Shown here one piece after another: positions 5,128 to 36,683 of a stretch of DNA of 36,683 nt. Made by a program: the position numbers and the translations under genes. The stretch is from NCBI GenBank assembly GCA_030622125.1, contig JAUXGM010000002.1:1-36683 (forward strand). Reading direction: 5' to 3'. The notes below the pieces were generated by a model. That model ran no database searches and was not told the origin of the DNA. It saw only the letters and a list, made by a program, of their open reading frames with translations. This DNA comes from a bacterium. GTDB lineage: Bacteria > AUK180. Numbering within the stretch: position 1 is the stretch's first letter; each line of letters begins with the position of its first letter.

Positions 5128-6201
5128 TTGATCTTTATTTTAAATTTATTCCAGGGATTACCATTTAGGATATTAATAGCATTGTTGCTGGTCTTTTTGG
5201 TCATTCCAATCTTCTCTGAAATAATTAAAAAAAGAAAATATAAAGAACTTCTTTCGGACTATAAAAAAGAGATTAACCTAATTATTGATAATTTGACGAC
5301 AGGGAAAGAGTCAGGTGAAACACAATTGAAATTTTTGAAAGAACTCATTAAAGAAATAGAAAAAATCAGAACAAAGTATAAAATTGATGTAAAAAACCAC
5401 AATGCAAAAACAGAGCGAATTCTGAAAGAAGCAAATGACTTTATCAACAATATAGAAGAAAAACTCCGAATGATGACACCGAAAAATTGGGATTGTAGAT
5501 TACCCGAACTTCGTATTGACTTTTTTAACAAAGAACAAACATCTTATACAAAAATAAATATAATCACACTTGACGAAAAAATAAACACTGTTACAGATCA
5601 ATTTAAAATTTATTATGATAGTTTTGATCAAATTTTTAATTTTATTAATATAATATTCGAGAAGATCATAAAACTTGATCAGATAAATAAAGAATTTCAA
5701 GTGGTCTTCGATAATATTAAATTGCTTTACTTGAATATTCAATTGGAAGCAATAAAAAAAGGAGATATTGCCAACGAATTTATCGTTATTGGTAATGAGA
5801 TGAATCAATTATATGATGATAGTAGAAATAATGTTAATAAAGTTGAGGAGATATTGAATTTTATAAAAACGCAACAAAATTTAATCGAAACCGGTGGCGA
5901 GATAAGGATCAATTTTGAAAATTTATCACAGGATCTTACATCCCTTGCATCTGATATTAAGGAAATTCAAAAGAAAATGGAGGCAAATAATATCAATAGT
6001 GAAATGAAAGATAAATTTTATAGCGATGCCGAAACAGAATATCAGGAATTTATAAAAAAGTGGTATGCACTTCAAGATAACCTTACTGAAATCAAAGAAT
6101 TTATTGAAAAAAATAATAATAGAGTAAATATAACTGTTTTAGAGTTTAAAAATGCTTTAAAGTGGCTGGAACATATTAAAGAAATATTAAAGGAGAAATA
6201 G
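5128..6201 (+). CDS. Membrane-anchored coiled-coil protein with a degenerate methyl-accepting chemotaxis signalling tip
   Basis: N-terminal TM; NIKLLYLNIQLEAIKKGDIANEFIVIGNEMNQL aligns with the MCP consensus [35 protein letters not shown] GGGAG before TTG. Confidence 0.65.
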   Translation: MIFILNLFQGLPFRILIALLLVFLVIPIFSEIIKKRKYKELLSDYKKEINLIIDNLTTGKESGETQLKFLKELIKEIEKIRTKYKIDVKNHNAKTERILKEANDFINNIEEKLRMMTPKNWDCRLPELRIDFFNKEQTSYTKINIITLDEKINTVTDQFKIYYDSFDQIFNFINIIFEKIIKLDQINKEFQVVFDNIKLLYLNIQLEAIKKGDIANEFIVIGNEMNQLYDDSRNNVNKVEEILNFIKTQQNLIETGGEIRINFENLSQDLTSLASDIKEIQKKMEANNINSEMKDKFYSDAETEYQEFIKKWYALQDNLTEIKEFIEKNNNRVNITVLEFKNALKWLEHIKEILKEK

Positions 6202-7308: not shown

Positions 7309-8683
7309 ATTTTTATACTATTTTTTATTTTTTCTTCTTTATTTTTTTTCTTTCCCAAATGAGATTATTAAAGATACATCTATAATACAAATTGTGTTAC
7401 CATTTTCTTTTTTTGTGATACTGATCAACTACAAAGACAAGATAAAAAAACTCTATTTTTATATAACAATGGTCATTGTCAATTATTTCCTTTATGTGTG
7501 GCTTATCTATACATTGCATAGATTCGGAGGGCTTCACTCACTTCTTGCCGCTTTTTTTATTTTATTTCTTTCTCTCTATCTTGCTTTATATCCATTAATT
7601 TTTCTTATACTTATCAGAAAATACAAAAGATATCCTTTCTTTTTCCCGGTATTCTGGTTGATATTAGAGATCATTAGAGGGTGGTTTCTGTCGGGATTTA
7701 CCTTTAATTTAATAGGTTATTCTCTTTATAAAGCTCGATTTTTAATTATGCCCGCCCGATTTTATACCGTATATGGTGTCGGTTTTTTTATAGTTCTACT
7801 CTCCACTTTGATTGTGAATATTAAAAGAAAGAATATGAAATTTATTCTTATATTTGCTCTTGTTGTTTATTTCATTCCACTTTTGGCTTTTCTAAGTCCC
7901 TATGAAAAGCCGAATATAAATATTGCAATGCTTGAAACATCATTTGAACCGGAGGATAAACGAATAAATAACTATGATGTTTTTTGGAAATACCATTATC
8001 AAAATACAAAAAAATTCTTGACAAGTGATCATAAAATTGACCTTATGATCTGGTCTGAAACCTCGTTTCCATTTACGATTAAAAGGAATTCCTATGAATT
8101 TATGCGGCTTCGGGATTTAGTAACAAAAAACGATATTAATCTTGTATTCGGTGCAATGAATTATTCTAATGGGAAATACTATAATTCCTCTATTTTTTTG
8201 AATAAAAACGGTATAATTGAAGATATCTATAGTAAAAATCACCTTGTTCTTTTCGGCGAATATTTTCCTTTAAGAAATTTTCCGATCTTGAAAAATATAT
8301 ATGGACAATTTCTCGATTTTACACCAGGGGAAGAAATTAAGGTATTTTCAATCGGAAAAACAAAGATCTACACACCGATCTGTTACGAAATCGCTTTTGG
8401 ATCACTTATAAGAAAAGCGGTAAAGCATGGAGCAAAAATAATAATTAATACATCAAATGATGGTTGGTACGGATACAGTTCGGGACCTATTCAGGAAGTA
8501 CCATTTGCGGTATTCAGAGCGATTGAAGGGAATGTGTGGGTTGGCAGAGCGATAAATCGGGGCTATGGTGTAATCGTGAGACCGGATGGAAAGATAATAT
8601 ATACCAACGACCCTAAAACATGGGGGGTTATAACCCTTGACCAAGAAGGTAAAGTAGATTTTTATAAATTATATATGAAGTAA
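7280..8683 (+). CDS. lnt: Apolipoprotein N-acyltransferase
   Basis: Nitrilase-type E-K-C triad (IWSETS, KNHLVLFGEYFP, ICYE), SNDGWYG, FRAIE. The frame is open upstream of GTG 7394 to 7265; probable CTG start at 7280 after AGGAG (start uncertain). Confidence 0.93.
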   Translation: MKNYCKHLNKFLYYFLFFLLYFFSFPNEIIKDTSIIQIVLPFSFFVILINYKDKIKKLYFYITMVIVNYFLYVWLIYTLHRFGGLHSLLAAFFILFLSLYLALYPLIFLILIRKYKRYPFFFPVFWLILEIIRGWFLSGFTFNLIGYSLYKARFLIMPARFYTVYGVGFFIVLLSTLIVNIKRKNMKFILIFALVVYFIPLLAFLSPYEKPNINIAMLETSFEPEDKRINNYDVFWKYHYQNTKKFLTSDHKIDLMIWSETSFPFTIKRNSYEFMRLRDLVTKNDINLVFGAMNYSNGKYYNSSIFLNKNGIIEDIYSKNHLVLFGEYFPLRNFPILKNIYGQFLDFTPGEEIKVFSIGKTKIYTPICYEIAFGSLIRKAVKHGAKIIINTSNDGWYGYSSGPIQEVPFAVFRAIEGNVWVGRAINRGYGVIVRPDGKIIYTNDPKTWGVITLDQEGKVDFYKLYMK

Positions 8684-9446
8684 TCGTTCCGACACCACCT
8701 GGAACGGGTGTGATACTACAATCAATATCCTCTAATAAATCCGTATTTACATCTCCTACGATCTTATTACCTAATTTATTAATACCGACATCAATGATAA
8801 ATTGATCGTCTCTGAAATATGATGGTCCGAAAAAATCAGCCTTTCCAATAGCACAAACAACAATATCTGCGGTTTTTGTTATTTGCGACAGCTCCAATGT
8901 TCTTGAATGGCATATTGTTACGGTGCAATTTTCGGATAAAAAAAGTGGAACAAGTGGTTTTCCAACACGAACAGATCGTCCTACAATAACAATATTCTTT
9001 CCTTCCAATTTTCCCTCGAAATATTTTTTTGCAATAACAAGAACGCTTTCTGCGGTTGCCGGCGCCAAAAGGGAGCTTCCGGCAAATAATTTACCAAAAT
9101 TATTTGTATTGATACAGTCAACATCCTTTTCTGCCGGTATTTTTTGCAAATATTCACTTTTCAGATCATTGGGATAAGGAGCAAGTGCAAGTATGCCATC
9201 GGATAATTTGATCTCATCCGAATCCAATAATGTCAAAAATTGTGAACTATTTGTATAGTTGAATATCTTTGCTTTGATATGAAATTGAACAGCTTTTTTT
9301 ATCAGGGATTCTGCGTAGTACTCCGCATCCCCGCCTTTTTCACCAAGAAATATGGCAAGCTTGATTTCGTTTTCATATTGTAATCTTTTTTGAATAATCT
9401 TTTCCCTCAGGATCTTACCAAGAGATTTTGTCTTATATATTTTCAT
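8628..9446 (-). CDS. folD: Methylenetetrahydrofolate dehydrogenase (FolD family; cyclohydrolase site altered)
   Basis: EKDVDC, GRSVRVGKP, TVTICHSRT, IDVGIN, VGDV, ITPVPGGVG. Start taken as ATG 9446 with SD GAGGT rather than TTG 9518. Confidence 0.93.
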   Translation of the reverse strand: MKIYKTKSLGKILREKIIQKRLQYENEIKLAIFLGEKGGDAEYYAESLIKKAVQFHIKAKIFNYTNSSQFLTLLDSDEIKLSDGILALAPYPNDLKSEYLQKIPAEKDVDCINTNNFGKLFAGSSLLAPATAESVLVIAKKYFEGKLEGKNIVIVGRSVRVGKPLVPLFLSENCTVTICHSRTLELSQITKTADIVVCAIGKADFFGPSYFRDDQFIIDVGINKLGNKIVGDVNTDLLEDIDCSITPVPGGVGTITSYIIYKNLLYLLGQGL

Positions 9447-9465
9447 TGTCAACCTCAAATAATTT

Positions 9466-9494
9466 ATTATAACAATATTGAAATAATTTTTCAA
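9466..9494 (-). promoter_or_regulatory. folD sigma70 promoter (TTGAAA-17bp-TATAAT, extended -10)
   Basis: Minus-strand TTGAAA at 9494-9489, extended -10 TGT-TATAAT ending at 9466, 17-bp spacer. Confidence 0.6.
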
Positions 9495-9525
9495 GTGTTT
9501 AAAAATAGTTTTTTGCAATTTTTTC

Positions 9526-10140
9526 CGTCATTCTGATTAAGTGAAACGATTGAAGAATCTATCTTTTGATTTTGCTTCTATTGTTTCTTTGTTTTCTGAA
9601 TTTGCAACTGGATTCCCTTGCTAACTGGGTTCACTCTTTTTCGCTTTGCGAAAAGGGGTGCCCCACTTGACGCCGATGCTATTGTTTTTTTTGTTTTTGG
9701 AGTTTAATATTATTTTTCTTACCAACCTCTAACCTCCAACCTCTAACCTCTTTGATGAGGTATGTCCCTCTTTTATTAGTTACGGAATTTTTAATATTGT
9801 TTTCCGTATCAATGGGTAGACACACAGGTCTACCCCTACAAATAACTGGTGCTTTTGCATTTTAATTCTCAATTCTCAATTGTTAACTCTCAACTATTTT
9901 GTACTCTGTGGTTAATATTTTTACTTAAATTCTGGATTCTTCTTGTGGGCAGTTGTCGTCATTCCAGGTGTAAATACCGAAAACAATAGGGACATCCCTT
10001 AAGAGTTGTGAGTTGCGAGTTATGAGTTTCGAGTTCAAAAGAAAATCCTCCGCTAACAAGCGGGACATACTTCGGATATTCAGGTGTGTCCCAAGATAAA
10101 GAGTGTCCCGTCTAATGAAAGAAAATTCCCGTCATTTTAA
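9526..10140. repeat. Composite intergenic repeat region: CGTC- and GTAG-tagged palindromes, heptamer tandem runs, GGGAC hairpin modules
   Basis: CGTCATT at 9526, 9957 and 10130; hairpin 9632-9660; 7-mer runs at 9722-9750, 9862-9896 and 10003-10037; GTAG-REP 9814-9839; hairpin 10062-10092. Several modules recur at 36477-36683. Confidence 0.8.
9814..9839 (-). repeat. GTAG-tagged REP palindrome
   Basis: Minus strand reads GTAG-GGGTAGAC-CTGTGT-GTCTACCC: a GTAG tetranucleotide abutting a perfect 8-bp stem. Confidence 0.8.
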
Positions 10141-10189
10141 ATTTTGTATTATTAGGGGTTTAGAATTTCGCAAATGGTTCTTTTGGTAT

Positions 10190-10223: not shown

Positions 10224-12122
10224 ATGAAAAAAAAGAAATGGATCGTATTTACAATAATTGCAGTTATTTACTTGATAACCCTCCCCGGAACCGTTCAAAT
10301 AGGGGATTCCGCAGAATTGATAACAGCATCGCTGACAGATTCATTATCCCATCCCCCAGGTTATAATCTTTACCTTGTTCTGACAAGGACATTATCAATA
10401 CTGATTCCTATTGCAAATAAGGGCTTGCTCTTTAATTTTTTCTCCCTATTATTTACTCTGTTCGGTCTTTTATTTCTTTTGAAAACGGTAGAATTGCTTT
10501 TTAAAAAGGAGGAACTGCTATTCGCTGCGATCCCTATTTTCTTCATTGCCCCTTTTTGGGAAAATTCAACAGTGGCGGAGGTCTACCCCCTCTATTTCGC
10601 TTTACTTTCATTGGGATTTTATCTTTTTGTATCTATAATTAAAGGAAAAAAGAAATTTTTACCGCTTTATTTCTTTATTTCCGGACTTGGAATGATTGCT
10701 CATCAAATGTATATTTTCTTCTTTCTGCCGTCTTTTATTATACTACTTTTAAGGAAGGATCGTTTTAAAATTACATATTTATTGCTGTTATTATTTCCAT
10801 TTTTACTTCACCTTTATCCAATTTTCAGAGCGGAGCATGCTTCTACTTATGTTTGGTCAAGTCCGAATAATTTACGGAAATTTCTCTTTTATTTTTTCAG
10901 AGGACAGTATGAACCAATTTACGGGAATTTTCATCTTATTTTAGATAAAATGAGATATCTTTATAAAATTTTTATTGTAAATTGGGGAATTATTTTCACA
11001 CTGTTATTAACATTCTTTCTTCTATTTATTAAAAGAAAAAAGGATCAGATAATAAATTATACATTTATATTTTTCATTTTTTCCTTTCCATTTATAATTC
11101 TTTTAATACCGGCTGATTATACCTTTAGAAAGGTTGAAATCTTTTTTCAATATATTCCCTCTATTATTCCTTTTGGATTGATACTATTTATTTACCTTCT
11201 GGATCTTTTAAAAAGGAAGGTATATATAATAATTGTTTCATTTATCAGCATTCTTTTTTTTATTCTTTCCGGACCGAATATGCTATTTAGAGATAGTGGA
11301 TTTTATGAGAAATATGGATACGATCTTCTATCAAACCTTCCTAAAAATTCTACACTCATTGTTAAAGGTGATAATCCAACCTTTTCTACCGTCTATTTAA
11401 AATATGTTAAGCACCTTAGAGAAGATATTACAATAATTTCAAGAAATGATATATTAAAGCAATCTATAAAGTTAAAGAAAAATCCACAAAAAGAAATAGA
11501 ACTTTTTGACACTACCGAAAATATCTACTATTCATCTCTAACGGAGATAGATCATATCAATACTAATCTAATCCCTTGCAATCTTTATTATGCAAAGAAT
11601 GGAAGTGAATGTAAAAAAGTAAATATTACCTTAAAAAAATATTATTATGGAACTGCCCTTTCAGCCCTGATATCGACTTATTACTACTTCCTTTATTTAA
11701 GAAACGAAAAAAATGATCATCTGAAAGCCGCTATGAAATTTGGAAAGCATAATGCAGGACTTTTTTACAATCTCGGCTATTTTTCTTATAGAAAAGGTGC
11801 TTTTAAAGATGCGGTAAAATATACGGAACAGGGTTATAGGATAGAAAAAAATCCTTATGGCAGAATAAACCTATTCGGGATATATATTTTTTATTCTCAA
11901 ACACTTTTCAAAGATAAAAAATATCAAGAGGCACTGATCTGTATTGATAAAGCAGAGAAAATAATGGATAATCCCAGTATCTATTTTTACAGGGGAGTTA
12001 TCTATGACCGGATGGGGTATGTTGAAATGTCGAGAGAAAATCTTGAAAAATTTATTTCATCGGACTATCGGGATAATAAAAAAATGAAAGTAGCAAGGTC
12101 AATACTTGAAAATAAAGAATGA
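10224..12122 (+). CDS. DUF2723/TMEM260-like GT-C glycosyltransferase (putative protein O-mannosyltransferase) with C-terminal TPRs
   Basis: GDSAELITAS...SHPPGYNLY, W..STVAEVY, many TM segments, GDN..F motif, C-terminal TPRs (YNLG, YFYRGVIY). Confidence 0.85.
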   Translation: MKKKKWIVFTIIAVIYLITLPGTVQIGDSAELITASLTDSLSHPPGYNLYLVLTRTLSILIPIANKGLLFNFFSLLFTLFGLLFLLKTVELLFKKEELLFAAIPIFFIAPFWENSTVAEVYPLYFALLSLGFYLFVSIIKGKKKFLPLYFFISGLGMIAHQMYIFFFLPSFIILLLRKDRFKITYLLLLLFPFLLHLYPIFRAEHASTYVWSSPNNLRKFLFYFFRGQYEPIYGNFHLILDKMRYLYKIFIVNWGIIFTLLLTFFLLFIKRKKDQIINYTFIFFIFSFPFIILLIPADYTFRKVEIFFQYIPSIIPFGLILFIYLLDLLKRKVYIIIVSFISILFFILSGPNMLFRDSGFYEKYGYDLLSNLPKNSTLIVKGDNPTFSTVYLKYVKHLREDITIISRNDILKQSIKLKKNPQKEIELFDTTENIYYSSLTEIDHINTNLIPCNLYYAKNGSECKKVNITLKKYYYGTALSALISTYYYFLYLRNEKNDHLKAAMKFGKHNAGLFYNLGYFSYRKGAFKDAVKYTEQGYRIEKNPYGRINLFGIYIFYSQTLFKDKKYQEALICIDKAEKIMDNPSIYFYRGVIYDRMGYVEMSRENLEKFISSDYRDNKKMKVARSILENKE

Positions 12123-13667: not shown

Positions 13668-13717
13668 ACTGGTGCTTTTTCCGTATTCCCTTATTACCTT
13701 ATTTCCTTATTTCCGTG
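13668..13717. repeat. Octamer tandem repeat (5 degenerate units) preceded by ACTGGTGCTTTT
   Basis: tttccgta-ttccctta-ttacctta-tttcctta-tttccgtg at 13678-13717; the flanking 12-mer is identical to 9845-9856. Confidence 0.7.
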
Positions 13718-15236
13718 TTTTCTGGTGTTCTCGCAATAATTGCTTAAACAATATTGGATTGGTTTTCTTTAAGATATTCATTTCTGAAAGAAAACTGTTT
13801 TTGTATGAAAAATTATTTTTCCCCTGGATCATTTTAACCATTTCTTTCATCGTCATCTCATAATTGTAAATATCACCGTTTTCCCTATAAATCATTGCTT
13901 CAAAAAGTTCCGGTCCAATATTATACCTGTTTTTTCTATACTTTTTGGAACGTTTTATCGTTTGAAAAGCTAAATTTTTCTTTCCGTTATTGTATTCTAT
14001 CTCGGCAATCTGGATGAACTTCCCCGTAAAACCATATTGATATGAAAACGGTTTCGGAATGATATGTAATAATAAAAAAAAGAGGGAAAAGATAAGAAAA
14101 TTTTTCTTATTTACTTTAAACAGAGATGTAAAAAGTATCGGAACGATAAGTAAAAGCAATTTATATCTCATTGAAAGGAAAAATGGGAGGATTGATATTA
14201 CCAAAAATAATTCAAGAAGGTAAAATTTGAGATGCCTTTTTCTTGCGTTTAAGAGTACAATAAAAAAGATTGAAAAAATAAATGCAAAACCCGGAAGAAA
14301 AAAGAGAAATTTCAGCCGATCCTTTATAAAATAATAGTTAAGATTAAGCGGTGGAGAGTATTCGGATATGGAAAGGTAAAATTTTTTCAAATAAAGAAAA
14401 AATCCTTTTATCGGATGGTAAAAAAGAAAATGGAGTCCTTTTTTAACAAAAAGATGACTTTTTAATTGGTTCAGATTCTCCATATCAGAGGAAAATCCTA
14501 TTATTGGAGTAAATCCGCCGTTACTTGCCTTATTGTTGCCTATAAAAAAGTTAATACCCCCTTGTGAAGAGGTAAGAACGAATCTCTTTTCTATGATAAG
14601 ATTTTTTAAAAAAAAGGGAAAAATTATAATTATTATTCCTAATAGTAACGGTAAGAACCGCTTTTTTCGCAGGATTAAATAAAGAATATAGAGAAATATT
14701 ACGATCAAAAGATTTCCCCGTCCGAGAAAAGAAAGACCCAGGAAAATACCTCCTAATAATGGCTTTCTCTCATTATATAATAAAAATAACAAAAAAAATG
14801 TAATAACAATGATCTCAGGGAGCGGGTAATTTGAGTAAATGATAAATGGAACTGATAATGCATATATTAAAGCCGGAATGATAGGTTTTCCTTTTTCAAA
14901 ATTCTTTTTTGAAATAGAAAAAATAAGATAGATATTCAAAAGATCAAGTCCTATCAAAAAAACTTTTGCGATAATAGAAGCATCAGAAAATAGCGAAAAC
15001 GGAAGACAGAATAGAACACCTAACGGATTTACATAAATCGGAAATTGAAATGAGCGTGCATATTCTATATAATATCTTACATCTAAAGAAGCGGAATAGT
15101 TCCAAAAATAGGGCAGTTTTTTACTAACAATAAAAAAAAGTGCCCTTAAAATGAATCCCAAAAGTAATACTGATATTATCTCATAGCGGGATTTTGAAAG
15201 AGTGTGTATCCATTTTTTTGATAGATTTTTTTCCAA
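13707..15236 (-). CDS. GT-C membrane glycosyltransferase (PMT/ArnT-like)
   Basis: LD..YY loop after TM1, GLSFLGRGN, TSSQGGINFFIGNN, FF..RY motif, polytopic, TPR-like C-terminal helices. Confidence 0.75.
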   Translation of the reverse strand: MEKNLSKKWIHTLSKSRYEIISVLLLGFILRALFFIVSKKLPYFWNYSASLDVRYYIEYARSFQFPIYVNPLGVLFCLPFSLFSDASIIAKVFLIGLDLLNIYLIFSISKKNFEKGKPIIPALIYALSVPFIIYSNYPLPEIIVITFFLLFLLYNERKPLLGGIFLGLSFLGRGNLLIVIFLYILYLILRKKRFLPLLLGIIIIIFPFFLKNLIIEKRFVLTSSQGGINFFIGNNKASNGGFTPIIGFSSDMENLNQLKSHLFVKKGLHFLFYHPIKGFFLYLKKFYLSISEYSPPLNLNYYFIKDRLKFLFFLPGFAFIFSIFFIVLLNARKRHLKFYLLELFLVISILPFFLSMRYKLLLLIVPILFTSLFKVNKKNFLIFSLFFLLLHIIPKPFSYQYGFTGKFIQIAEIEYNNGKKNLAFQTIKRSKKYRKNRYNIGPELFEAMIYRENGDIYNYEMTMKEMVKMIQGKNNFSYKNSFLSEMNILKKTNPILFKQLLREHQKTRK

Positions 15237-16642
15237 TTTCCAAACTCCAATCGGCTTTTAACCGATGTAAATACTGATTTCGCGGAAGGATTATCCAATA
15301 GGTAATCTTTGATAAATAAAAATTTTGTTTTCATTAAAAGATTGGAATTTTTTTCTTCCGATACAAATGTATTTATACTGATTACATTCCCTTTTATAAG
15401 TCCGTATATACTGGGGTCCGTAATAACAACTTGATCTACGATCCTCTCATTTATAAAATCGGCGATCTCTGCAAGAAAATAGTTCGGATTGTAAAAAAGA
15501 ATTATCGAATCAAATCTTTTTTTCTCCCTCCACGATGAAAGACTCAGAAATTTACTTGGATGTGTTTTAAGCAGCAACTTTAAAAAATCGTCAAACAGTA
15601 AATATTTATATCCGGCACTTTTTCCATTTTCAATCACACTATCGAATTCCTTCCAATTATCTTTCTTTAAAAAAGCAAGTTCTCTGGAAATTATAGTTGG
15701 TTCCTTTAATTCCGGCAGATCTTTGATATCTTGAAAATTAACTGATGGAAACGGCAATTTGATGTACCTTCTTTTTGAGTAATCGAATTGATATTTGAGA
15801 TGAAAATTATTAACAAAACCACCGACAAGATTAAATACGGCAAGGACCAAGAAAAGACAGTAAACCCATTTTTTATGATCGAATCTATAAAAACCGTAAA
15901 GTAAAATGAAAAATGAGAGAGAAAAAGGCAGTTCATAAGAATTATTAAGAAAAAACAATATAAATGAGAGTAAAAACAAAATTAAAAGTGATTTCAAATT
16001 TTTGTTCTCAATGAATATTAAAATAAACAAAAGCGGAATAAATATCCCCGTTAGATAAAGTGACTGTAATTTTAATAATGAAAGATCAAAAAAAAGATTC
16101 TTATAAAATATTCCGATAAATACTATATTTAATCCTGCACCGATAATCTTATATATTTTGTTTGCTCTTATAAATAGCAAAAAAAATGGTAAAAATGGAG
16201 AAATGAATGGAGAGAAAACAGCTATAATTCCCCGCACATATTTATTTTTAATAATATCAAAAAGAAAAAAGAAAAGGATACCCAGATGAACAGGGGAGAA
16301 GACCTTTATATACTGATTGATCTGAGGGATTGAAAGGATCACGGCAAGAAAAATAAGTGGTTTTACAGGGTTTTTCTTTTTAAAATACAACAAAAAAAAG
16401 ATGGCAATCAATGATAAAAGTGATAATATTCTCAGCGAATAGAATGAAAAGAAGATCGCGAATAATTTTACCAAAAGAAAATAGAAAAAAGAAAAAGGAA
16501 AAGCAATTTTAAATGAAATGGAAAGAGAAACTCCTTCGGTTGGTGTTATTCCCGGATGTGAAAACCAAAAGATAAGATGAAATATAATCATTAATAAAGA
16601 TAAAGCGATCGCAATTTTTTCTATTATTTGTTTTTTATCCAT
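15176..16642 (-). CDS. Polytopic membrane protein, possibly a divergent GT-C
   Basis: About 9-10 TMs followed by a soluble C-terminal domain; acidic residue in loop 1 (PTEG); LRILS motif; position between GT-C genes. Confidence 0.55.
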   Translation of the reverse strand: MDKKQIIEKIAIALSLLMIIFHLIFWFSHPGITPTEGVSLSISFKIAFPFSFFYFLLVKLFAIFFSFYSLRILSLLSLIAIFFLLYFKKKNPVKPLIFLAVILSIPQINQYIKVFSPVHLGILFFFLFDIIKNKYVRGIIAVFSPFISPFLPFFLLFIRANKIYKIIGAGLNIVFIGIFYKNLFFDLSLLKLQSLYLTGIFIPLLFILIFIENKNLKSLLILFLLSFILFFLNNSYELPFSLSFFILLYGFYRFDHKKWVYCLFLVLAVFNLVGGFVNNFHLKYQFDYSKRRYIKLPFPSVNFQDIKDLPELKEPTIISRELAFLKKDNWKEFDSVIENGKSAGYKYLLFDDFLKLLLKTHPSKFLSLSSWREKKRFDSIILFYNPNYFLAEIADFINERIVDQVVITDPSIYGLIKGNVISINTFVSEEKNSNLLMKTKFLFIKDYLLDNPSAKSVFTSVKSRLEFGNWKKIYQKNGYTLFQNPAMR

Positions 16643-18012
16643 ATATTATACCTCATTCTTTCTCCTATATATGCCCATTCATTCTCAACAAGATATTTTT
16701 TTATATTCTTACCGCCCGGATATTGAGAAAATGATCTTAATATCACTATTTCAATATTATATTTTTTAAAGATCTCTTGGATCTTATTGCCCTGTGCGAC
16801 ATCAATGTAATCAAAAAGTTTCTCTTTGTTGAGATTTATTCCATAGATAAATACCTTTCTTTTCAATTTATAACTTAAAAAACCACCGAGAGAGTAATCA
16901 TTAAAAATGTTTCCCTTTAGATTCAATTCATAAAAAAGTGATCCTATCTTTCCGTCATAAAATTTTGAAATCCCAATTCCCGGATCAACATTTAATCGAT
17001 AGTAGGGGGAAAAAATATTTATTGTATATAGGATAATTAACATTATTATGAGTCCGTATCTTTTTATTTTAGTTGCATTTTTTAAGAATCTATCAATTAC
17101 AAAGATCAGAGATATACCGAAGAACGGAATAAATCTTCTCGCAAATAAGACAGCAATTCCTAAAAATAGAGGGAGAATTATTGTTCTATCCTTTTTATCA
17201 AAATGAAAAATGATCTGAAAAAGGAAAATCATACCAAAAAAGAGAAATAGTATCTTTACAAAGGTTGGTAGAGGTCTGACATTAGAAAAAAGAGGCAGCC
17301 ATTCTCCGATCATAACAGTAAAATCCTTGTTAATAAATGAATTCAAATACTGTTCAATATTTCTAAAAGACGATGGATTAAGCAGTAAGGCAATTATGAT
17401 AATGATTAATTCAAATATCCTGTTCTTATCAAATTTTTTTTCAAAAATAAGCTCTGAAATCAAAATAGAAAGGGGAAAAAATAAGAGAAGCAAGACACCC
17501 TGATGTAACTGATTCCAAACAAGTGTCGTAAAAAAAAGGTATATAAATCTCTTTTTACCGGACAATTTTGTGAATATGTAGTATGAAAATGTAAAAAAGA
17601 ACAGGGAAAATATTTCAGGTTTTGCAAAGATACGGATAGAAATAAGTAGCAATATCAAAGGAAAAACCAAATAGTGAAGATTTAATTTTTTTCTAATAAT
17701 ATAAAAAATAAGAAATAAAACAAGTATTTTTAGTAAAAAGATGCCGATTGCTCCGGAAATTAAATAGATAATATAAAGAATTATATCGGATAAAAAAGAT
17801 TGAAAATAGGGCTTGCCGGGTAATGCGAAAGAAAAAGGATCAAACTTTGGAAAACCATTTTGTAAAAAATATCTTCCATAATCAATATGCCACCAAAAAT
17901 CCGGTGAAACGATCTTAAAAAAAGAAACAGAGAAAATAGTAAACATAGAAAAAATAAGATCCGAGTACTTTTTGAAAAAATTAACCATCTTTCTGCCAAT
18001 AGATATCTTCAT
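16624..18012 (-). CDS. GT-C-like membrane protein (D.WWH...G family)
   Basis: PDFWWHIDYGRY..DPFSF, KPEIFS, WNQLHQG, IGEWLP, RRFIPFF, IFNDYSLGGFL. Alternative start ATG 17988. Confidence 0.7.
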   Translation of the reverse strand: MKISIGRKMVNFFKKYSDLIFSMFTIFSVSFFKIVSPDFWWHIDYGRYFLQNGFPKFDPFSFALPGKPYFQSFLSDIILYIIYLISGAIGIFLLKILVLFLIFYIIRKKLNLHYLVFPLILLLISIRIFAKPEIFSLFFFTFSYYIFTKLSGKKRFIYLFFTTLVWNQLHQGVLLLLFFPLSILISELIFEKKFDKNRIFELIIIIIALLLNPSSFRNIEQYLNSFINKDFTVMIGEWLPLFSNVRPLPTFVKILFLFFGMIFLFQIIFHFDKKDRTIILPLFLGIAVLFARRFIPFFGISLIFVIDRFLKNATKIKRYGLIIMLIILYTINIFSPYYRLNVDPGIGISKFYDGKIGSLFYELNLKGNIFNDYSLGGFLSYKLKRKVFIYGINLNKEKLFDYIDVAQGNKIQEIFKKYNIEIVILRSFSQYPGGKNIKKYLVENEWAYIGERMRYNIWIKNK

Positions 18013-20305: not shown

Positions 20306-23300
20306 ATGTTTGCAAAAAAATTCAAGTCTTTATTGTTTTTTTTGTTTTTCTCCATTACTATCTTTATTCAAAGTGCTGTTATTGAGGAATCTCCCGATCA
20401 GATAAATCCATTTTTGGAATCACCGAAGACAGTATTGGTAGAAAAGAAAAAAAGACCGTTTTTAAAAAGAAAGAAATCATTTCTTCCCAAACCGGCATTC
20501 ATACTTAAAGGCGGGAAAGGAGGGCTGCTTCCGGAACTTGAAATATCGGCGATCAAAAGTAATATCTCATTGAGTATCTTTAAAAATCTCTCTTTTTCCT
20601 TTTCAAATAAGGTTTATCCCAATGACCCGAATAGAGCAGCAACGTATCAGCCGAATTTAAATCAAAGTATGAAATTAAATCTGAAAGGAATAGTTGGTGA
20701 CAGATTGAATATATTGATCAAATACGACGATACGCAAAAAACATTTAATATAGATCAAAATATTTCTTTAAAATATATCGGCAAGAAGGATGAGATATTG
20801 AGTTATTTGGAAGCGGGGAATATCAATCTTTCCCTTCCGAATACACAATTCGTTTCATACAATAAAAATTTCTTTGGAATAAAAGGAAAACTTATATTTG
20901 AAGATATTCCGATAATCCCAGGAAAATTACAATTATTTCCGATCATAGGTGTATCCGAAAATAAAACAATATCTGCGACCTATAGCGGAAATACATCAAA
21001 TACAAAGAAAACCATATCCGACTGCGGATACGCAAAGAACAGTGTCTTTGTTCTTTATAGAAATGTACCGGAAGGAACTCATTCCAAATATGCTTATAAC
21101 GATCTTATCAATAATTTTTTGGGTGACTACAAGGTTATAGGGAATTCCGAGGTTATCTATTATGACAACCGTATTGGCACAGATAATACCGAGGCAACGG
21201 TAGCAGCAGGACCCAAACAGGGAGAAACGCAGATATGGAATTTTGATCAGCTTTTGCGAGGAACGGATTATTATATAGATACGGTCAGTGGGCTGCTTTA
21301 TTTGCAAAAAAGTATTAAGGACAACGGGCTCTTGATCGGAGCTTTTCAGGTCCAGAACAATACAACCGCTGAAATAATTGATATAGGAAATAATTTAACA
21401 CCCTTTATTGATGATAATGATTCCGGTTTTTTTGATGATGATCCTGCTCCCGGTATGGATAATGATAATGATGGGGATACCCGCGAGGATACTATTGACG
21501 GAATTGACAATGACGGCGACGGGCAGATAGATGAAGACCCCGATGATATCTGGATCGATGGCGGTTCTGCTCAAACAGGAACCGATCCCTATCAAAGCGG
21601 ATATATCTTTTTAAAGGCGGAGCAGAACCGTTATATGGGGAATGCCCTTGTAAATGTTTATAAAACAGGCATTACCGGAATATCTCCCGGTGATGTTACG
21701 GTCAATATAATAAATAAGAATGATCCTGATGGTGATAATGATCCGACGGTATTTACAACCTCTTCCGGAAAGAAAATATCGTATCTTGCTATATTCGGAC
21801 TTGATATGGAGCCGATTGACGGGAGAATAGATATAAGATTTCTTGATACGGATAACGGCTATCTGATATTTTCGGATGCGACTCCTTTTGATCTTACGGA
21901 TAACGATACTTCTTCAAGTAGTTATTTTGAGAAACTTAGACTTGAAAAGGGACTTGATGATACCGACATAAATGAAATTATAGAAAAATGTTCAAATAAA
22001 TATATATACGCAGTAAATGATTCTTTAATCGATCCATTTAATATCTCTCAAACAAAGTTTGACATTTCATTGGAATATGCGGCACCGCAAAAAAGCTATA
22101 ATCTTCATTGGGATATTAAAGAGGGTTCGGAGGTTGTCAAGGTGGACGGTATTATAACACGCCGCGGCACGGATTATACGATTGACTATAATACGGGAAA
22201 TTTGACATTTATAAATGAAGAGATATTAAGAGGGAATGCAAAGGTGGAGATCGCTTATGAATATGTTCCTTTCGGGGTAACAGAACAAAAATATGTATTG
22301 GGAAATCGGTTTGAATGGAATGTAAGCAAGAATTTTTTCATCGGTTCCACTATAATAAGTGAAAGATTCTTAAAGAAACAGACCGAGATACCGCAACCGG
22401 GAAATGAGCCGGAAAGTAAATTTGTATTTGATGTTGACGGTTCTCTTAATATTACAAAGGACTTTCTGAAAAGGACACTATTTTCTCTTCCCATATTAAA
22501 AAAATCCGAACCTTACGATATCAAATTATCGGGTGAATACGCATATTCATACAACAACCCCAATACATATAAGAAGACCGCAATTGAAACAATGGAGGCA
22601 ACAAAGACCACAGAAAGCCCGAGCACATCCTATAAATTATGGAATCTTTCATCAAAACCCGCCGTTCTTTCTTCTGCTGATACAAGGGCAAAGACAACTA
22701 AGATTCAATTTAAGGATATCGATGATTTTAATAATTTCGGTGAATTCGGATTTTATTCCTGTAAGGATGATGATAGTCATCCCTATACGCCATCGGAAGA
22801 GGAGGGTCTGCAGTCCGGTCATATTGAGGACTCCTTATTCTTTAAATTATCGAAAGGAAATAGCTGGGCTGGTATTCAAAATGTATTTTCCACGAATTTT
22901 ATAGATATGTCACGGAAAACCTCACTTGATTTTTGGATTAAAAATCTAAAAAGCCTTCCGAAAAATGCAATTATTCACATCGATATCGGATTGATCTCGG
23001 AAGATAGTGACGGAGATATTTTTCTTGATACGGAGGATACGAACAGTAACGGTAGTTTAAATCTTGATGAGGACACGGGAATTACATTTGATTACGATAC
23101 CGCTACAACATCTATATTGGGAAAGGATGACGGTAGTTTACAAAGTGAGGACCTTGATAAAGATGGACTTTTAGATACCGCCGAGAGATATTATACATAT
23201 ACATCGGATATCTTAAATTCTATTTCGGAAGGGGATGGATGGCAATTCGTTTCGATACCTCTAAATCTTGAAAATGATGAAAAGCAGGGAAATCCTTCCC

Positions 23301-28450: not shown

Positions 28451-29827
28451 ATGATAAAAATTGTGGGTGTTAATCCTATTTATTCAAGTGAAGAGATATT
28501 AGAAATAGATAAAGTAGGTATCACTTTAAAAAATACAGACAAAAAAGGTACCGATGCAACGATTATTCTTGTTATCAGAGAGAAAAACGGACAGGATGTA
28601 TTAACACAGGATTTTGATTTATTTTTGGCTTCAAATAAGGTTAATGAATTTATTATTCCACTGGATATTCCCATCAATAGTAATTGGTCATGTGAAATCC
28701 GAATAATGATCCAGGTAAGTGGTAAGATCGTCGCCGAAAGTGAGTGGTATGATCTGATCCAGGGAGAGGAAACCGAAAAAGAGGAAGAAACAAAGCCATA
28801 TACGAGTGAGTTTTTAAAAGAAGAAGATACCGAAACCGAACTGGCAGCAGATGTAACTCCGGAGAGCTCCGAAAAAGAAGATTCTAAAAAAAGTTTTGAT
28901 GAGAAAGAGGATACCGAGGTTACAATTGTCGAGGATGAAAAAGAAAAAAAAATAACGTCATCATGGGGTATTTTGATTGAAGATGGTAAAAATGCAACTT
29001 TCGGGATAGAAGTAGAAAGTGATATAGTTCCGGAAGAGGAAGAAAAGATAGAGGATAGAGGCTCGAGGTTAGAGGTTAGTGAAGAAAAAGAAAAGAAAAA
29101 AGAGGATAGAGGCAATAAAAAGACAATGAATAGTGAAGAGTTAATAGTGAATAGTGAAGAGAAAAAAGAAAAAGAGGTTAAAAGCATGCCCAGCACCAAG
29201 ATGGTGCAGGGTGAAAGGTTAACGGTTAGTAAAGAAAAAGAAAAGAAAACAGAGGATAAAGGCTCAAGGTTAGAGGTTAGTGAAGAAAAGAAAAGGAAAA
29301 AAAAGAAAATAGAAATCGCTGAGAAAGTTGAGGAGGAGTTTACACAAACAGAAGCAGAAATTATAGTCAAAGATGCAAGCGAGAATGTTGTTTCGGATTT
29401 GAAACAAGATCAACAAAAGATGTTCCGTCAAAAGAAAAAACGATTTCCGGTTCTATTGATATTGATCTCAATCGTTGTAATCGGTGCTGTTGGGTATTAT
29501 TTTTTTATTGTAAAGGGAATTAAAATTCCATTTATCAACCGTGAAAAAACGGTCGATAAAACAAAAGAAACAGATATTAATGATCTACTTTCAACGGGAA
29601 AAGATGATCTACTGGTCATTGAAAAAAATTATATTGTTGAAACAGAAAAACTATCCGAAGATCAGCTTGGAAAGATAGAAAATCTTATAGAGAAATACAA
29701 TGGAAATCTTTTAGAAGTTGATGGGGGTTATAAAATGACCTTTAATTTCAAAAAGAAGGATAATGCAAATGAATTAAAAACTTTATTAGAGGAAAAAGAA
29801 ATAAAATGTACGATAAAGGAACAGTAA
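28451..29827 (+). CDS. Single-pass membrane protein: N-terminal beta-sandwich-like domain, E/K-rich linker, TM, SPOR-like C-terminus
   Basis: No signal peptide; TM FPVLLILISIVVIGAVGYYFFIV after KKKR; the C-terminus YKMTFNFKKKDNANELKTLLEEKEIKCTIK resembles SPOR. Confidence 0.6.
   Translation: MIKIVGVNPIYSSEEILEIDKVGITLKNTDKKGTDATIILVIREKNGQDVLTQDFDLFLASNKVNEFIIPLDIPINSNWSCEIRIMIQVSGKIVAESEWYDLIQGEETEKEEETKPYTSEFLKEEDTETELAADVTPESSEKEDSKKSFDEKEDTEVTIVEDEKEKKITSSWGILIEDGKNATFGIEVESDIVPEEEEKIEDRGSRLEVSEEKEKKKEDRGNKKTMNSEELIVNSEEKKEKEVKSMPSTKMVQGERLTVSKEKEKKTEDKGSRLEVSEEKKRKKKKIEIAEKVEEEFTQTEAEIIVKDASENVVSDLKQDQQKMFRQKKKRFPVLLILISIVVIGAVGYYFFIVKGIKIPFINREKTVDKTKETDINDLLSTGKDDLLVIEKNYIVETEKLSEDQLGKIENLIEKYNGNLLEVDGGYKMTFNFKKKDNANELKTLLEEKEIKCTIKEQ
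29050..29289 (+). repeat. Heptamer tandem repeats and a 39-bp direct repeat inside the coding linker
   Basis: gaggata-gaggctc-gaggtta-gaggtta at 29051 and again at 29252 (2 mismatches over 39 bp); tgaatag-type x5 at 29127-29161; ggtgcag-ggtgaaa-ggttaac-ggttagt at 29203-29230. Confidence 0.8.
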
Positions 29828-36476: not shown

Positions 36477-36500
36477 GTAGGGGTCGTTCGTGAACGACCC
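36477..36500 (+). repeat. GTAG-tagged REP palindrome
   Basis: GTAG-GGGTCGTTC-GT-GAACGACCC: a perfect 9-bp stem just downstream of the kinase stop codon. Confidence 0.8.
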
Positions 36501-36505
36501 ATTTA

Positions 36506-36683
36506 AAGTTTGGAGTTTGGGGTTTGAGGTTAATAAGAAAAACAATATTAAATTCCGTACCCCCACAAAAGAGGGACATTACCGAATACAATTGATAATG
36601 GACAATGGACAATTGACAATGAAAAAAAAGACAAATACAAACTCCGAAAACAGGCGGGACGTACCTCGGATGTTCAGGTGCGT
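36506..36683. repeat. Composite repeat region (heptamer runs and GGGAC modules), truncated by the window end
   Basis: 7-mer runs at about 36506-36533 and 36588-36622; AAAACAATATTAAATTCCGTA and AAAAGAGGGACAT modules shared with 9759-9805; hairpin 36656-36683 matches 10062-10092. Confidence 0.75.

Follow-up and report, generated by a model that had tools for sequence, protein, structure and literature searches.

A module-built intergenic spacer of an AUK180 bacterium: an unusually elaborate REP/BIME-like repeat with hairpin arms matching transposase-gene ends

Pneumococcal BOX elements consist of three modules, boxA-(boxB)n-boxC, with no known dedicated enzyme. Cyanobacterial STRRs are dispersed heptamer repeats, and the ends of IS200/IS605 elements, which often carry tnpB, are subterminal hairpins without terminal inverted repeats. 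TIRYTs form a large, nearly unstudied branch of the Y1 transposases. TIRYTs, TIRtrons and dispersed TIR families have been described, the latter termed 'moderately abundant' in the available text, with a published TIRtron end motif of GGGGWSAS and ends beginning with GGGGAC or GGGAC (Di Nocera et al. 2013, PMC3733652). Y1 proteins of subclass 2.1 carry Bac_DnaA_C or HTH tails, and the accessible part of that study reports that no REP-like sequences were found near subclass 2.1 genes (Quentin et al. 2018, PMC6006769). Multicopy elements of Geobacter metallireducens have been described as dispersed tandem heptanucleotides (PMC2700814). We found no experiment demonstrating TIRYT activity in the literature text available to us.

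Here, we describe a repeat-built spacer near folD in an AUK180 bacterium (assembly GCA_030622125.1), analysed within positions 1 to 36,683 of contig JAUXGM010000002.1 (the window, 36,683 nucleotides in all). We regard the spacer as an unusually elaborate REP/BIME-like repeat because its modules occur genome-wide and its hairpin ends are those of a transposase gene. It is most likely a pile-up of small repeats from at least two unrelated systems, namely GTAG-REPs and lineage-specific TIRtron-armed hairpins. Our main reading, to which we give a probability of roughly 0.55, is that these are REP/BIME-like non-autonomous repeats that would have been spread by a TIRYT and reshaped by slippage and recombination.

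Layout of the spacer and grammar of its modules

A BLAST depth map places the repeat-built stretch at 9520-10180, slightly beyond the 9526-10140 of the initial annotation, and shows it to consist of at least 12 modules, each present in 4-133 further copies (Table 1). A minus-strand chain is accompanied by a second chain on the opposite strand with a K box and hairpin (10055-10092, plus strand). Markers on both strands were seen in only 2 of 156 oriented clusters, one of which is this spacer. The GTAG-REPs at 9814-9839 and 36477-36500 give DNA folds of -7.0 and -8.4 kcal/mol, respectively (z -3.4 for each), and the GGGGCACCCC..GCGAAAAAG hairpin module, which lies 3' of an L box at several further loci, folds at -9.8 kcal/mol (z -2.9); the module at 9520-9577 has no stable fold. 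Module A at 9759-9774 stands without a closing right arm, with heptamers next to it. A scan of the whole window against Rfam, on both strands and at gathering thresholds, returned 0 matches.

Table 1 Repeat features of the spacer, the second site and the in-frame segment.
Feature	Position	Strand	Remarks
GATTCTTC..CAGAATGAC module (token X)	9520-9577	-	folD-proximal edge; 4-9 copies (BLAST depth)
Module with GGGGCACCCC..GCGAAAAAG hairpin	9600-9693	-	8-15 copies (BLAST depth)
Second L box, TAAGAAAAATAATATTAAACTCC	9699-9721	-	BLAST depth about 55-65
GAGGTTR heptamer run, 4 units	9722-9750	-	Computed 9724-9751, period 7, 4.0 copies
Module A, AAAAGAGGGACATACC	9759-9774	-	AAAAGA and GGGACATACC left arm
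L box, AAAACAATATTAAAAATTCCGTA (AACAATATTAA..TCCG)	9781-9803	-	Junction module 5' of left arm
GTAG-REP type a, GTAGGGGTAGACCTGTGTGTCTACCC	9814-9839	-	GTAG head and 8-bp stem; upstream edge of minus-strand chain
AATTGAG/AGTTGAG heptamer run and adjoining module	9850-9942	-	TRF 9864-9893; adjoining module about 22-25 copies
Plus-strand chain: ACCGAAAACAAT, degenerate GGGACATCCC, GAGTTGY heptamer run (10003-10035)	9975-10035	+	4-9 copies
K-box end (AACAAGC), 31-nt hairpin H2 GGGACATACTTCGGATATTCAGGTGTGTCCC (10062-10092), AAGA	10055-10096	+	23-32 copies
Further module	10099-10177	+	5-9 copies; abuts promoter region of downstream gene
In-gene modules: GAGGTTA heptamers, GCATGCCCAGCACC..GGTGC hairpin module, AATAGTG heptamers	29045-29306	+	Repeat map 29056-29313
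GTAG-REP type b, GTAGGGGTCGTTCGTGAACGACCC	36477-36500	+	19 bp 3' of histidine kinase gene stop
Heptamer run RGTTTGG, final unit GAGGTTA	36507-36530	+	Tandem-repeat computation
L box (36534-36559), variable 7-9 nt segment, module A AAAAGAGGGACATTACC (36567-36583)	36534-36583	+	Depth 120-133, window maximum
CAATKGA heptamer run	36588-36621	+	48 hC tokens genome-wide
K box CTCCGAAAACAGGC and hairpin H2 (36656-36683)	36640-36683	+	Reads CCGAAAACAGGC, then GGGAC hairpin

The spacer and the second site (36477-36683) both read as the initial annotation had them, save for the linker bases GATACGG, ACTAAT and TCATCAA, which it omitted. The modules are not shuffled between the two sites, as it had claimed; both follow the order GTAG-REP, optional heptamer run, L box, left arm, heptamer run, L or K box, and they differ in which optional pieces are present and in the heptamer unit. 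Hairpin H2 of the second site is cut by the contig end, with 28 of 31 nt present. At 29045-29306, modules lie in frame inside a variable linker of a conserved 458-aa protein, whose orthologues align on both sides of the repeat segment, that of G001 (genus g2) being gapped opposite it. Repeat modules are thus able to sit inside a conserved gene.

Across the genome, the motifs AGAGGGACAT, CCGAAAACA and AACAATATTAAA were observed 134, 133 and 70 times versus 2.1, 12.9 and 4.2 expected, respectively. Named modules occur in 278 repeat regions on 159 of the 192 contigs, which bears out the genome-wide distribution first supposed and disposes of a family restricted to the two sites. These repeats make up 37% of the non-coding DNA on a crude gene map, and 167 clusters of at least three tokens share one grammar. 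This starts with a GTAG-REP and, optionally, a heptamer run, continues with an L box and a GGGAC left arm, and closes with a right arm and tail or with another heptamer run. The cassettes are therefore not freely interchangeable, as had been proposed, since order and strand are under tight grammar (936 of 1042 adjacent module pairs on the same strand as each other; 154 of 156 oriented clusters unidirectional). Of the 215 L tokens, 119 have A as the next token and 22 have K; of the 128 A tokens, 56 lead into R1 and 42 into a heptamer run; X tokens number 52, and the T box stands directly 3' of GTCCC in 139 of 144 cases. Multi-module clusters are nearly all individual in composition, and few architectures are seen more than once in the 130 internal clusters. 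Unequal recombination (tandem duplication) would give (h-L-A)n and (R0-T-E)n arrays without a transposase, a point against the TIRYT model. AACCTCT is the commonest period-7 unit of the genome (44 arrays), and heptamer and octamer runs are moderately enriched beside GGGAC arms (116 of 306 and 76 of 157 within 80 bp, respectively, compared with 25% of random intergenic 30-mers).

We considered whether the composite could be an assembly artefact, produced by repeat-induced chimeric joins in a metagenome bin. Although the bin comprises 192 contigs and a contig end truncates the second site, this account is hardly credible: contigs from two studies' runs, one of which may be the source sample, tile 9547-9998 and 10099 onward, mostly with 0 differences (single pieces deviate by 1-2 letters or by at most 2 one-base gaps), the same grammar recurs in the 167 clusters mentioned above, and H2 has identical flanks in two other assemblies. 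Parts of the stretch were found in 19 sequencing-run entries from 8 studies of cold-seep, marine-sediment and vent metagenomes, with no RNA dataset among these entries. No repeat longer than 416 bp is present in the assembly, and 175 of 384 contig ends stop in repeats. The strong fragmentation of the bin is attributed to the module repeats, because 138 of the 384 contig ends lie inside module-bearing clusters.

Hairpin structure and placement relative to genes

We counted 144 intact GGGAC...GTCCC hairpins in four size classes (30, 31, 45/46 and 51 nt) and 216 genomic matches to the arm pattern GGGAC[AG][CT]ACC. The arms read GGGAC-R-Y-ACCTC ... GAGGT-R-Y-GTCCC; position 6 pairs as A-T in 112, G-C in 28 and A.C in 4, and position 7 is T.G in 138 of 144. 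Variants of the left arm go together with those of the right arm (38 of 48 units, z 13), and the variable flanking segments are unlinked. The canonical H2 form is also present in the sister-genus genomes G002 and G005. No T-run was found 3' of the hairpins, so they are ruled out as intrinsic terminators. Further candidates were set aside: a CRISPR array, as the spacing is not regular; a retron or DGR, as reverse transcriptase had no match in the genome; and a TnpB guide RNA, as TnpB (PF07282) had none either. Heptamers as tandem copies of the H1 inner stem are unsupported, the GAGGTTR junction being one base longer than GTTGAGG.

Among the 48 clusters with both neighbour genes annotated, 19 lie between convergent and 10 between divergent genes, compared with 109 and 107 of 1590 junctions genome-wide. 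Cluster orientation relative to tandem genes is weakly biased (14 same, 5 opposite), as is co-orientation with GC skew (odds ratio 2.4, p 0.026), and individual hairpins exhibit no strong strand bias relative to genes (13 same, 6 opposite in tandem context). The weak gene and GC-skew co-orientation may reflect RNA-level selection, which would speak against the TIRYT model.

These features raise the possibility that the modules are host-selected structural or regulatory elements, i.e., RNA hairpins stabilising or punctuating transcripts or DNA sites for nucleoid proteins, kept and homogenised by selection and recombination, with the likeness of arms to TIRtron ends reflecting a distant origin. 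Both the G-C/A-T covariation and the conserved T.G wobble are consistent with one strand being folded, and the G.T-bearing strand of H2 at 10062-10092 folds better (-5.8 kcal/mol on the plus strand versus -4.6 on the minus strand). Clusters favour gene ends, shun operon-internal junctions and are weakly co-oriented with genes (14:5), the H2 sequence is conserved across two genera, and such roles are credited to REPs elsewhere (PMC3733652, in its available text). However, we consider host selection unlikely, given the lack of Rfam matches in the window at gathering thresholds, the absence of a strong strand bias of hairpins, the missing T-runs, the individual composition of the 130 internal clusters, a burst limited to one genome, and modules lying in frame within a gene.

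Transposase genes and the hairpin ends

No candidate enzyme was found within the window, in agreement with the initial annotation, which had placed the mobilising enzyme outside it and suggested a TnpA-Y1 search. A PF01797 search of the genome recovered four intact Y1 transposase genes, all TIRYTs on other contigs. One of them, on contig C172 and hereafter called C172, is single-copy and encodes a Y1 (HUH) tyrosine transposase whose C terminus has a DnaA-C-like HTH. The ends of this gene match the hairpin arms over 12 bases: the 12-mer GGGACACACCTC (59 copies) is its left end and the inverted form its right end. The hairpin left arm departs from the TIRtron end at position 7, with T instead of C, and nothing in the TIRtron interior corresponds to the L, T and E modules, which always flank the arms. 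The C172 gene and its dispersed ends are best described as a TIRYT/TIRtron sensu Di Nocera et al. (2013).

The C172 protein scores above the cut-off of PF01797, and its best NCBIfam model is the REP-associated tyrosine transposase, at 56 bits versus a cut-off of 80. All 8 homologues in the alignment (8 of 8) retain the HUH residues (H60, H62) and the catalytic Y119. A word-based homologue search recovered three close relatives only, one named 'transposase [bacterium]'. The AlphaFold model (mean pLDDT 73.9) has as its top PDB fold match (E 8.7e-7, with a target-normalised TM of 0.71) 4er8_A, which is a RAYT in complex with its REP hairpin; matches 2-24 are IS608, ISDra2 and IS200 transposases, and a DnaA DNA-binding domain also matches (TM 0.61). 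PDB searches by sequence did not reach the RAYT entry, whether the query was the protein alone or a profile of 8 sequences. PF08299 falls below its cut-off in C172 (E 2e-5) and is also listed in the precomputed Pfam annotation, and HTH_23 is above cut-off in the protein of another gene, C140. A C-terminal HTH of the subclass 2.1 kind (Bac_DnaA_C, HTH_23 or HTH_28) is thus present.

Inverted repeats flank all four intact TIRYT genes, and GGGGACGG and AGGGACAC each agree with GGGGWSAS at 7 of 8 positions. The ends of class II (C172-type) are dispersed as the repeat family of 216 arm matches and 144 hairpins; class I comprises 35 GGGGACGGTGG copies, including 4 MITE-like pairs, and its ends share the GGGAC core with class II. 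Eight inverted GGGGACGGTG pairs are present: TIRYT genes lie within three of them, and another four are MITE-like elements of 161-198 bp. These class-I elements have matching ends and, as expected for Y1 enzymes, no visible target duplication, whereas MITEs, at 70-300 bp, have a target-site duplication; the class-II hairpins measure only 30-51 nt. In the three paralogous TIRtrons, paired 9-mer direct repeats are found immediately internal to the ends; three of the four MITE-like elements share end and 9-mer direct repeats with a particular TIRYT gene, and the derivatives match two of the three paralogues.

GTAG followed by a stem-loop occurs in about 45 copies of three types in this genome. 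These modules are multi-copy, extragenic, imperfect palindromes of 20-40 bp with a GTAG tag at one end, which is the definition of a REP. Type a has 17 matches at up to 2 mismatches and shows a compensatory stem change in relatives, and a search of 41 genomes detected type c in 8, some of them only distant kin. In contrast, the GGGAC-arm family is limited to this genome and one sister genus. The composite is thus not the single element originally proposed, and GTAG-REPs are an older, broader class than the GGGAC-arm family. No cognate RAYT flanked by GTAG-REPs was found in the 96%-complete assembly, where all four PF01797 matches are flanked by GGGAC-type ends; such a RAYT could have remained unassembled.

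The C172 TIRtron is syntenic in a second genus, with orthologous flanking genes of 55-67% identity, and the orthologue of the gene in G005 (66% identity) carries an inverted repeat, GGGACACACCTCGC, that is perfect over 14 bp. The insert is present in G000, G005 and G002, and the site is empty, with flanking genes abutting, in G001, G004 and G006 (genus g2) and in G003 (genus g4). The TIRtron is single-copy and vertically inherited. The arm family follows the C172-type TIRtron across six family genomes: G005 has 12 arms and G002 has 5 (1 each in reversed-pattern controls), and G001, G003 and G004 have 1-3, not above such controls. From 12 in G005 to 216 here, the family has expanded at least 18-fold in one lineage, the counting patterns being slightly different. 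Since G005 and G002 carry the same TIRtron with so few arms, a C172-type gene alone is insufficient for the burst. In the search for an empty site at the spacer itself, folD was found to be about 50% identical in relatives, with a different upstream neighbour in G005 and G004. A metagenome scan with a 16-base pattern, which was too short, gave chance matches at all 119 loci screened among the matches listed; a loose L-box match was seen at 9 of these loci, and a T box, R1 arm or K box at none.

Under the main reading, TIRYT would recognise the arms as a single-stranded DNA hairpin. At 7-9 nt above the foot of this hairpin, the T.G wobble or bulge, which is conserved, may make one strand the better hairpin. 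By analogy with RAYT and IS200/IS605 enzymes, TIRYT might cut and rejoin at the hairpin foot, and new copies landing beside or inside existing ones would yield unidirectional chains and nested hairpins. Heptamer and octamer runs could be counterparts of the paired 9-mer direct repeats in the paralogous TIRtrons, possibly enlarged by replication slippage and perhaps serving as HTH binding sites. The variable sub-segments would then be re-assorted as the more than 100 copies recombine or undergo gene conversion. Against TIRYT-driven spread, no insertion, excision or empty site of a hairpin or composite was seen, nor any presence/absence variant in the contigs of 4 metagenome runs, whose length falls short of the region. 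The position-7 difference, the L, T and E modules, the few arms of G005 and G002 and the missing cognate RAYT of the GTAG-REPs also count against it. The contigs of the 4 runs break in repeats, none spans the spacer, and the joints listed are short-sided and fit other genomic copies.

It is also conceivable, and in our view quite unlikely, that the repeats are mobile through an agent other than C172, whether an element lost from the fragmented assembly, a class-I TIRYT acting across families, or an integrase-like hairpin recombinase. Integron attC arrays are unidirectional imperfect hairpins with unpaired bases, a description that fits the hairpin chains here; the 175 contig ends in repeats imply that multi-copy genes may be missing, the L...E unit is without a match in the TIRtron interior, and the GGGAC core is common to class-I ends. 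Yet the longest assembly repeat is at most 416 bp, TnpB and reverse transcriptase were not found in the genome, all four PF01797 matches are TIRYTs, no cassette-like open reading frames (as in integrons) lie between hairpins, and the arm family tracks the C172-type TIRtron in the six family genomes.

A more ambitious and improbable version of TIRYT-driven spread envisages a domesticated TIRYT as a genome-structuring system, in which the DnaA-like HTH would read heptamer arrays, asymmetric GGGAC hairpins exposed on single-stranded DNA at the fork would be cut and joined by the HUH domain with a preference for insertion into its own products, and the host would use the arrays, for example, as fork, supercoiling or transcript boundaries. 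If true, such an enzyme would write a directional hairpin 'sentence' at most transcription-unit boundaries. In that case, no TIRYT before it would have had a demonstrated substrate family, nor any earlier repeat system a defined grammar of insertion.

A single-copy TIRYT, syntenic in two genera with its site empty in two others, represents a clean natural case, and a hairpin family with TIRYT ends, together with three paralogous TIRYTs, offers defined oligonucleotide substrates for biochemistry.

Comparison with known repeat systems

Set against the available descriptions of TIRtrons, the present case shares a Y1 HUH protein longer than RAYTs with a DnaA_C/HTH tail, inverted repeats, and the same ends dispersed as singles, pairs and clusters. 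It differs in its higher copy number and elaboration, with module clusters on 159 of 192 contigs, and in its directional chains, grammar, L/T/E junction boxes and heptamer runs. Unlike the subclass 2.1 genes in the accessible text of PMC6006769, C172 is associated with a repeat family. The comparison to E. coli REP/BIME with RAYT (TnpA-REP) holds for the high-copy extragenic imperfect palindromes, the GTAG members, the mosaics with linkers, the preferred site between convergent genes, and an associated enzyme that is single-copy, vertical and closest in fold to 4er8. The initial label of BIME-like stands for the linker motifs (L, T, E and K boxes), but not for the orientation of REPs, which alternates in BIMEs, whereas 154 of 156 oriented clusters here are unidirectional. 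Furthermore, the main hairpins lack a GTAG head, and unlike a RAYT, the C172 enzyme is below the NCBIfam RAYT cut-off (56 vs 80 bits) and has an extra HTH.

Set side by side by description, BOX elements are likewise modular, directional composites with variable internal tandem units and strong secondary structure, whereas the present case has 12 or more modules and a candidate enzyme. The Y1 HUH fold, the irregular hairpins that favour one strand and the absence of target duplication (class-I ends) are shared with IS200/IS605 and their miniature derivatives, although the ends here are inverted copies of each other and TnpB was not found in the genome. Finally, the short heptamer runs, each with 4-5 tandem units and recurring at dozens of sites between and within genes with several unit types per genome, resemble the Geobacter metallireducens elements and STRRs; in the available text of PMC2700814, the former are not described beside transposase-type ends, as the runs are here.

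Extent and setting of the repeat modules

The window comprises contig C58 in full; its genome bin (2.08 Mb in 192 contigs, 33% G+C, 96% complete) represents a deep, uncultured lineage. Named organisms from several phyla provide the nearest matches to its GluRS, at ~50% identity, and the stretch itself turns up in runs from cold-seep, marine-sediment and vent metagenomes, with no RNA run among them. Comparisons were made with six genomes of the same family and two of the same class. All modules that the initial annotation had listed for the spacer and the second site were recovered in place, and its expectation that they recur genome-wide was borne out: 278 regions with named modules lie on 159 of the 192 contigs. 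Copy numbers far exceed chance: relative to the genome-wide numbers expected from composition, AGAGGGACAT is present in 134 copies (2.1 expected), CCGAAAACA in 133 (12.9) and AACAATATTAAA in 70 (4.2). In a BLAST depth profile, at least 12 modules cover the spacer along its whole length, each having 4-133 copies elsewhere, and its unique DNA amounts to only ~40 bases beside each start codon. Repeat regions defined by 15-mers with at least 5 occurrences number 513 and cover 93,294 bp (4.5% of the assembly), and the 74,557 bp outside our crude ORF calls occupy 37% of non-coding space. The longest repeat in the assembly is at most 416 bp, repeat pairs have a median of 61 bp, and 138 of 384 contig ends fall inside module-bearing clusters. 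Because the bin is highly fragmented, these repeat counts are lower bounds.

Modules also occur in frame within one ORF of the window, which encodes a conserved 458-aa protein with no assigned function; its E/K-rich linker contains GAGGTTA and AATAGTG heptamers and a GCATGCCCAGCACC..GGTGC hairpin module. In 5/5 family genomes the orthologue aligns on either side of this segment, that of G001 (genus g2) having gaps facing it. Separately, the window encodes four ORFs with no Pfam match (E <= 0.001), which adjoin genes with FHA and adenylate-cyclase domains.

Coordinates of the repeat sites, candidate enzyme genes and associated elements
Feature	Contig	Position	Remark
Repeat-built spacer	window	9520-10180	between divergent genes
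folD	window	8628-9518 (minus)
TMEM260-like/TPR gene	window	10224-12122 (plus)
Second site	window	36477-36683	begins 19 bp past histidine kinase gene stop (36458); cut by contig end
1766-aa ORF and three 462-509-aa ORFs	window	20306-25606 (plus); 13707-18012 (minus)
In-frame module segment	window	29045-29306	within ORF 28451-29827 (plus)
Heptamer/L-box junction	window	9699-9750
Folded full unit (L002:1379-1562)	C12
Class I TIRYT gene	C73	12764-13692	ends are inverted GGGGACGGTGG
Class I TIRYT gene	C140	8218-9259	ends are inverted GGGGACGGTGG
Class I TIRYT gene	C141	12003-12955	ends are inverted GGGGACGGTGG
Class II TIRYT gene	C172	3630-4472	bounded by GGGACACACCTCGC and imperfect inverse
MITE-like element	C34	23444-23637
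MITE-like element	C40	2833-3026
MITE-like element	C45	7485-7645
MITE-like element	C91	4788-4985
1223-bp element	C183	3547-4769	GGGGACGGTGTTTC-type inverted ends
Y1-like gene	C122	4733-5218	bounded by AGTGCCAGGTTGACG...
TIRYT-start remnant	C1	about 5961-6040	beside GGGGACGGTGG end
PF05635 gene	C82	10197-10514
PF05635 gene	C32	2989-3303
PF05635 gene	C184	7447-7761
PF05635 gene	C60	6357-6566

Module grammar and hairpin structure

For tokenising the clusters we wrote fuzzy patterns by hand and chose the token set ourselves. The commonest unit runs from a heptamer or octamer run through the L box (AACAATATTAAnyTCCG), 7-9 variable bases, AAAAGA, hairpin H1 (GGGACAT(T)ACCTCAAC - loop - GTTGAGRTGTGTCCC), the T box (GGAYTCTTCMTTAGATAACGATA) and 6 variable bases to the E box (CCCGARAACARTAT). 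The K box (GAAAACARGC) precedes hairpins H2 (31 nt), H3 (30 nt) and H4 (51 nt), which have an arm core in common with H1. With A denoting AAAAGA plus left arm, R1 a right arm and R0 and R2-R4 further tokens, token transitions are tightly restricted genome-wide: heptamer runs lead to L (115) or K (32), L to A (119) or K (22), A to R1 (56) or a heptamer run (42), K to R2/R3/R4 (51) or a heptamer run (13), R2 and R4 to R1 (23), R3 to R0 (21), R1 and R0 to T (112), and T to E (140). Adjacent tokens lie on the same strand in 936 of 1042 cases and 154 of 156 oriented clusters are unidirectional; the spacer is unusual in carrying a second chain on the opposite strand. Nested hairpins appear as strings such as A-hC-K-R2-R1-T-E, where hC is a CAATKGA heptamer run. 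Nearly every multi-module cluster has a unique composition, just three multi-module architectures being seen twice among 130 internal clusters. The two sites had been described as containing shuffled modules, a description we do not retain since both follow one shared path through the genome-wide grammar and differ in optional pieces only.

Among 144 intact hairpins, the position 6 pair is A-T in 112, G-C in 28 and A.C in 4, with H2 and H4 both showing compensatory change. A T.G wobble occupies position 7 in 138/144, where T is fixed by the search pattern and the partner base alone is informative. H1 takes two forms, both irregular 7-9 nt from the foot (a C.A mismatch or a bulged T); in 38 of the 48 full units the forms of the two arms match (z 13), and the variable segments in L, loop and T are mutually unlinked. 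The computed fold of the window's H2 is -5.8 kcal/mol on the G.T-bearing strand versus -4.6 on the other. For a full unit on C12, the computed fold comprises H1 and a second stem in which the last GAGGTTA heptamer pairs with the L box (..TTAATCTCC), and a heptamer array would therefore give several pairing registers. The same junction is present in the window.

Clusters with both neighbours called (n = 48) occupy 19 convergent, 10 divergent and 19 tandem junctions, compared with 109, 107 and 1374 of all 1590 gene junctions. Cluster orientation agrees with that of tandem neighbours in 14 cases and opposes it in 5, and is associated with local GC skew (odds ratio 2.4, p = 0.026), both being weak signals and dependent on crude gene calls. 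Short tandem runs show a moderate excess near arms: 116/306 heptamer runs and 76/157 octamer runs lie at most 80 bp from one, compared with 25% of random intergenic 30-mers.

The GTAG-REPs are a layer separate from the GGGAC-arm hairpins, with ~45 copies of three types in the bin. Type a is shared with four relatives in the family, a compensatory stem change being present in three of them, and type c occurs in 8 of 41 genomes searched, some distantly related only. The REP GTAGGGGCACGGCATGCCGTGCCC is near-unchanged in G007, G012, G014, G015 and other genomes related at the domain level only; in relatives it is often a perfect palindrome with GTAG on both strands. A PF01797 search of the 96%-complete assembly found no canonical RAYT for the GTAG-REPs.

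TIRYT genes and their history

The TnpA-Y1-type genes that the initial annotation proposed to look for do exist: the genome encodes four PF01797 proteins (280-299 aa), and neither TnpB nor reverse transcriptase was found in it. Their top NCBIfam model is REP-associated tyrosine transposase, with scores below cut-off; all four carry a Bac_DnaA_C- or HTH_23-type HTH at the C-terminus, and an alignment of 8 homologues shows no variation in HUH or the catalytic Tyr. An AlphaFold model (mean pLDDT 73.9) has its best fold match in 4er8, a RAYT-REP hairpin complex (E 8.7e-7), with further matches to IS608, ISDra2 and IS200 transposases and to the DnaA DNA-binding domain. These genes belong to the TIRYT/TIRtron class (Di Nocera et al. 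2013, PMC3733652), a TIRtron being a TIRYT gene with its terminal inverted repeats, and to subclass 2.1 (Quentin et al. 2018, PMC6006769). Class I genes carry a gene-specific 9-mer direct repeat pair just within their ends. Three of four MITE-like elements (161-198 bp) share both end and 9-mers with the C140 or C141 gene, and the assembly contains no parent gene for the C91 type. The dispersed hairpins have as their arm the end of the class II gene on C172.

Three further loci were noted. The C183 element contains an open frame of 208 aa whose ORF gave no match in the PF01797 or TIRYT protein search, the C122 gene lacks the HUH-motif region and is bounded by a different inverted repeat, and C1 retains a TIRYT-start remnant. 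Four-helix-bundle genes (23S-rRNA-IVS-type, PF05635), also suggested at the outset, were found in four copies, those on C82 and C60 being at most ~2 kb from large repeat clusters.

In G005, from a different genus, the orthologue of the C172 TIRYT is 66% identical, is bounded by perfect 14-bp inverted repeats and has the same two flanking genes (neighbours 55-67% identical), and G002, compared at the ends, has the same TIRtron ends at the same site. The flanking genes directly abut, with no TIRtron between them, in G001, G004, G006 and G003. The TIRtron thus entered once, ahead of the split between genera g1 and g3, and its inheritance since then has been vertical, the behaviour described for RAYTs. 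Arm-family matches number 12 in G005 and 5 in G002 (reversed-pattern controls, 1 each), and 1-3 in G001, G003 and G004, not above such controls. H2 with identical immediate flanks is present in G002 and G005, the only genomes with the H2 pattern among 185,579 species genomes in a scan whose scope possibly excludes the window's own genome. Judged by this distribution, the arm-family expansion is specific to the lineage of our bin.

Interpretation and comparison with known systems

The best-supported reading is that the repeat load consists of REP/BIME-like non-autonomous repeats, with the main hairpin family as putative substrates of a domesticated TIRYT. From the anatomy and from known RAYT and IS200/IS605 enzymes, we infer that the TIRYT would recognise hairpin arms as single strand, cleave at the hairpin foot and insert new copies beside existing ones, slippage could lengthen the subterminal short repeats and recombination could occur among copies. 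Against this reading, neither insertion nor excision of a hairpin was observed, nothing in the TIRtron corresponds to the L, T and E boxes, position 7 differs between the hairpin left arm and the TIRtron end, and the sister genus has the same TIRtron yet only a handful of arms. The metagenome contigs were too short to reveal polymorphism.

New here are the way hairpins, junction boxes and heptamer arrays are chained in one direction under fixed rules, to the extent of about one third of non-coding DNA, and the tie between repeats and a TIRYT of subclass 2.1, for which Quentin et al. (PMC6006769) reported no associated repeats; the literature, as far as accessible to our search, yielded no account of such a chained system. 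BIMEs alternate in orientation, whereas 154/156 clusters here are unidirectional, and the earlier label "BIME-like" fails in this respect. The system also differs from IS200/IS605 because terminal inverted repeats are present and TnpB is absent. The tested features of TIRtrons are found here, apart from the GGGGWSAS motif, which is matched inexactly, and REP/RAYT and the TIRtron TIR families are the known systems that function alike to the present one.
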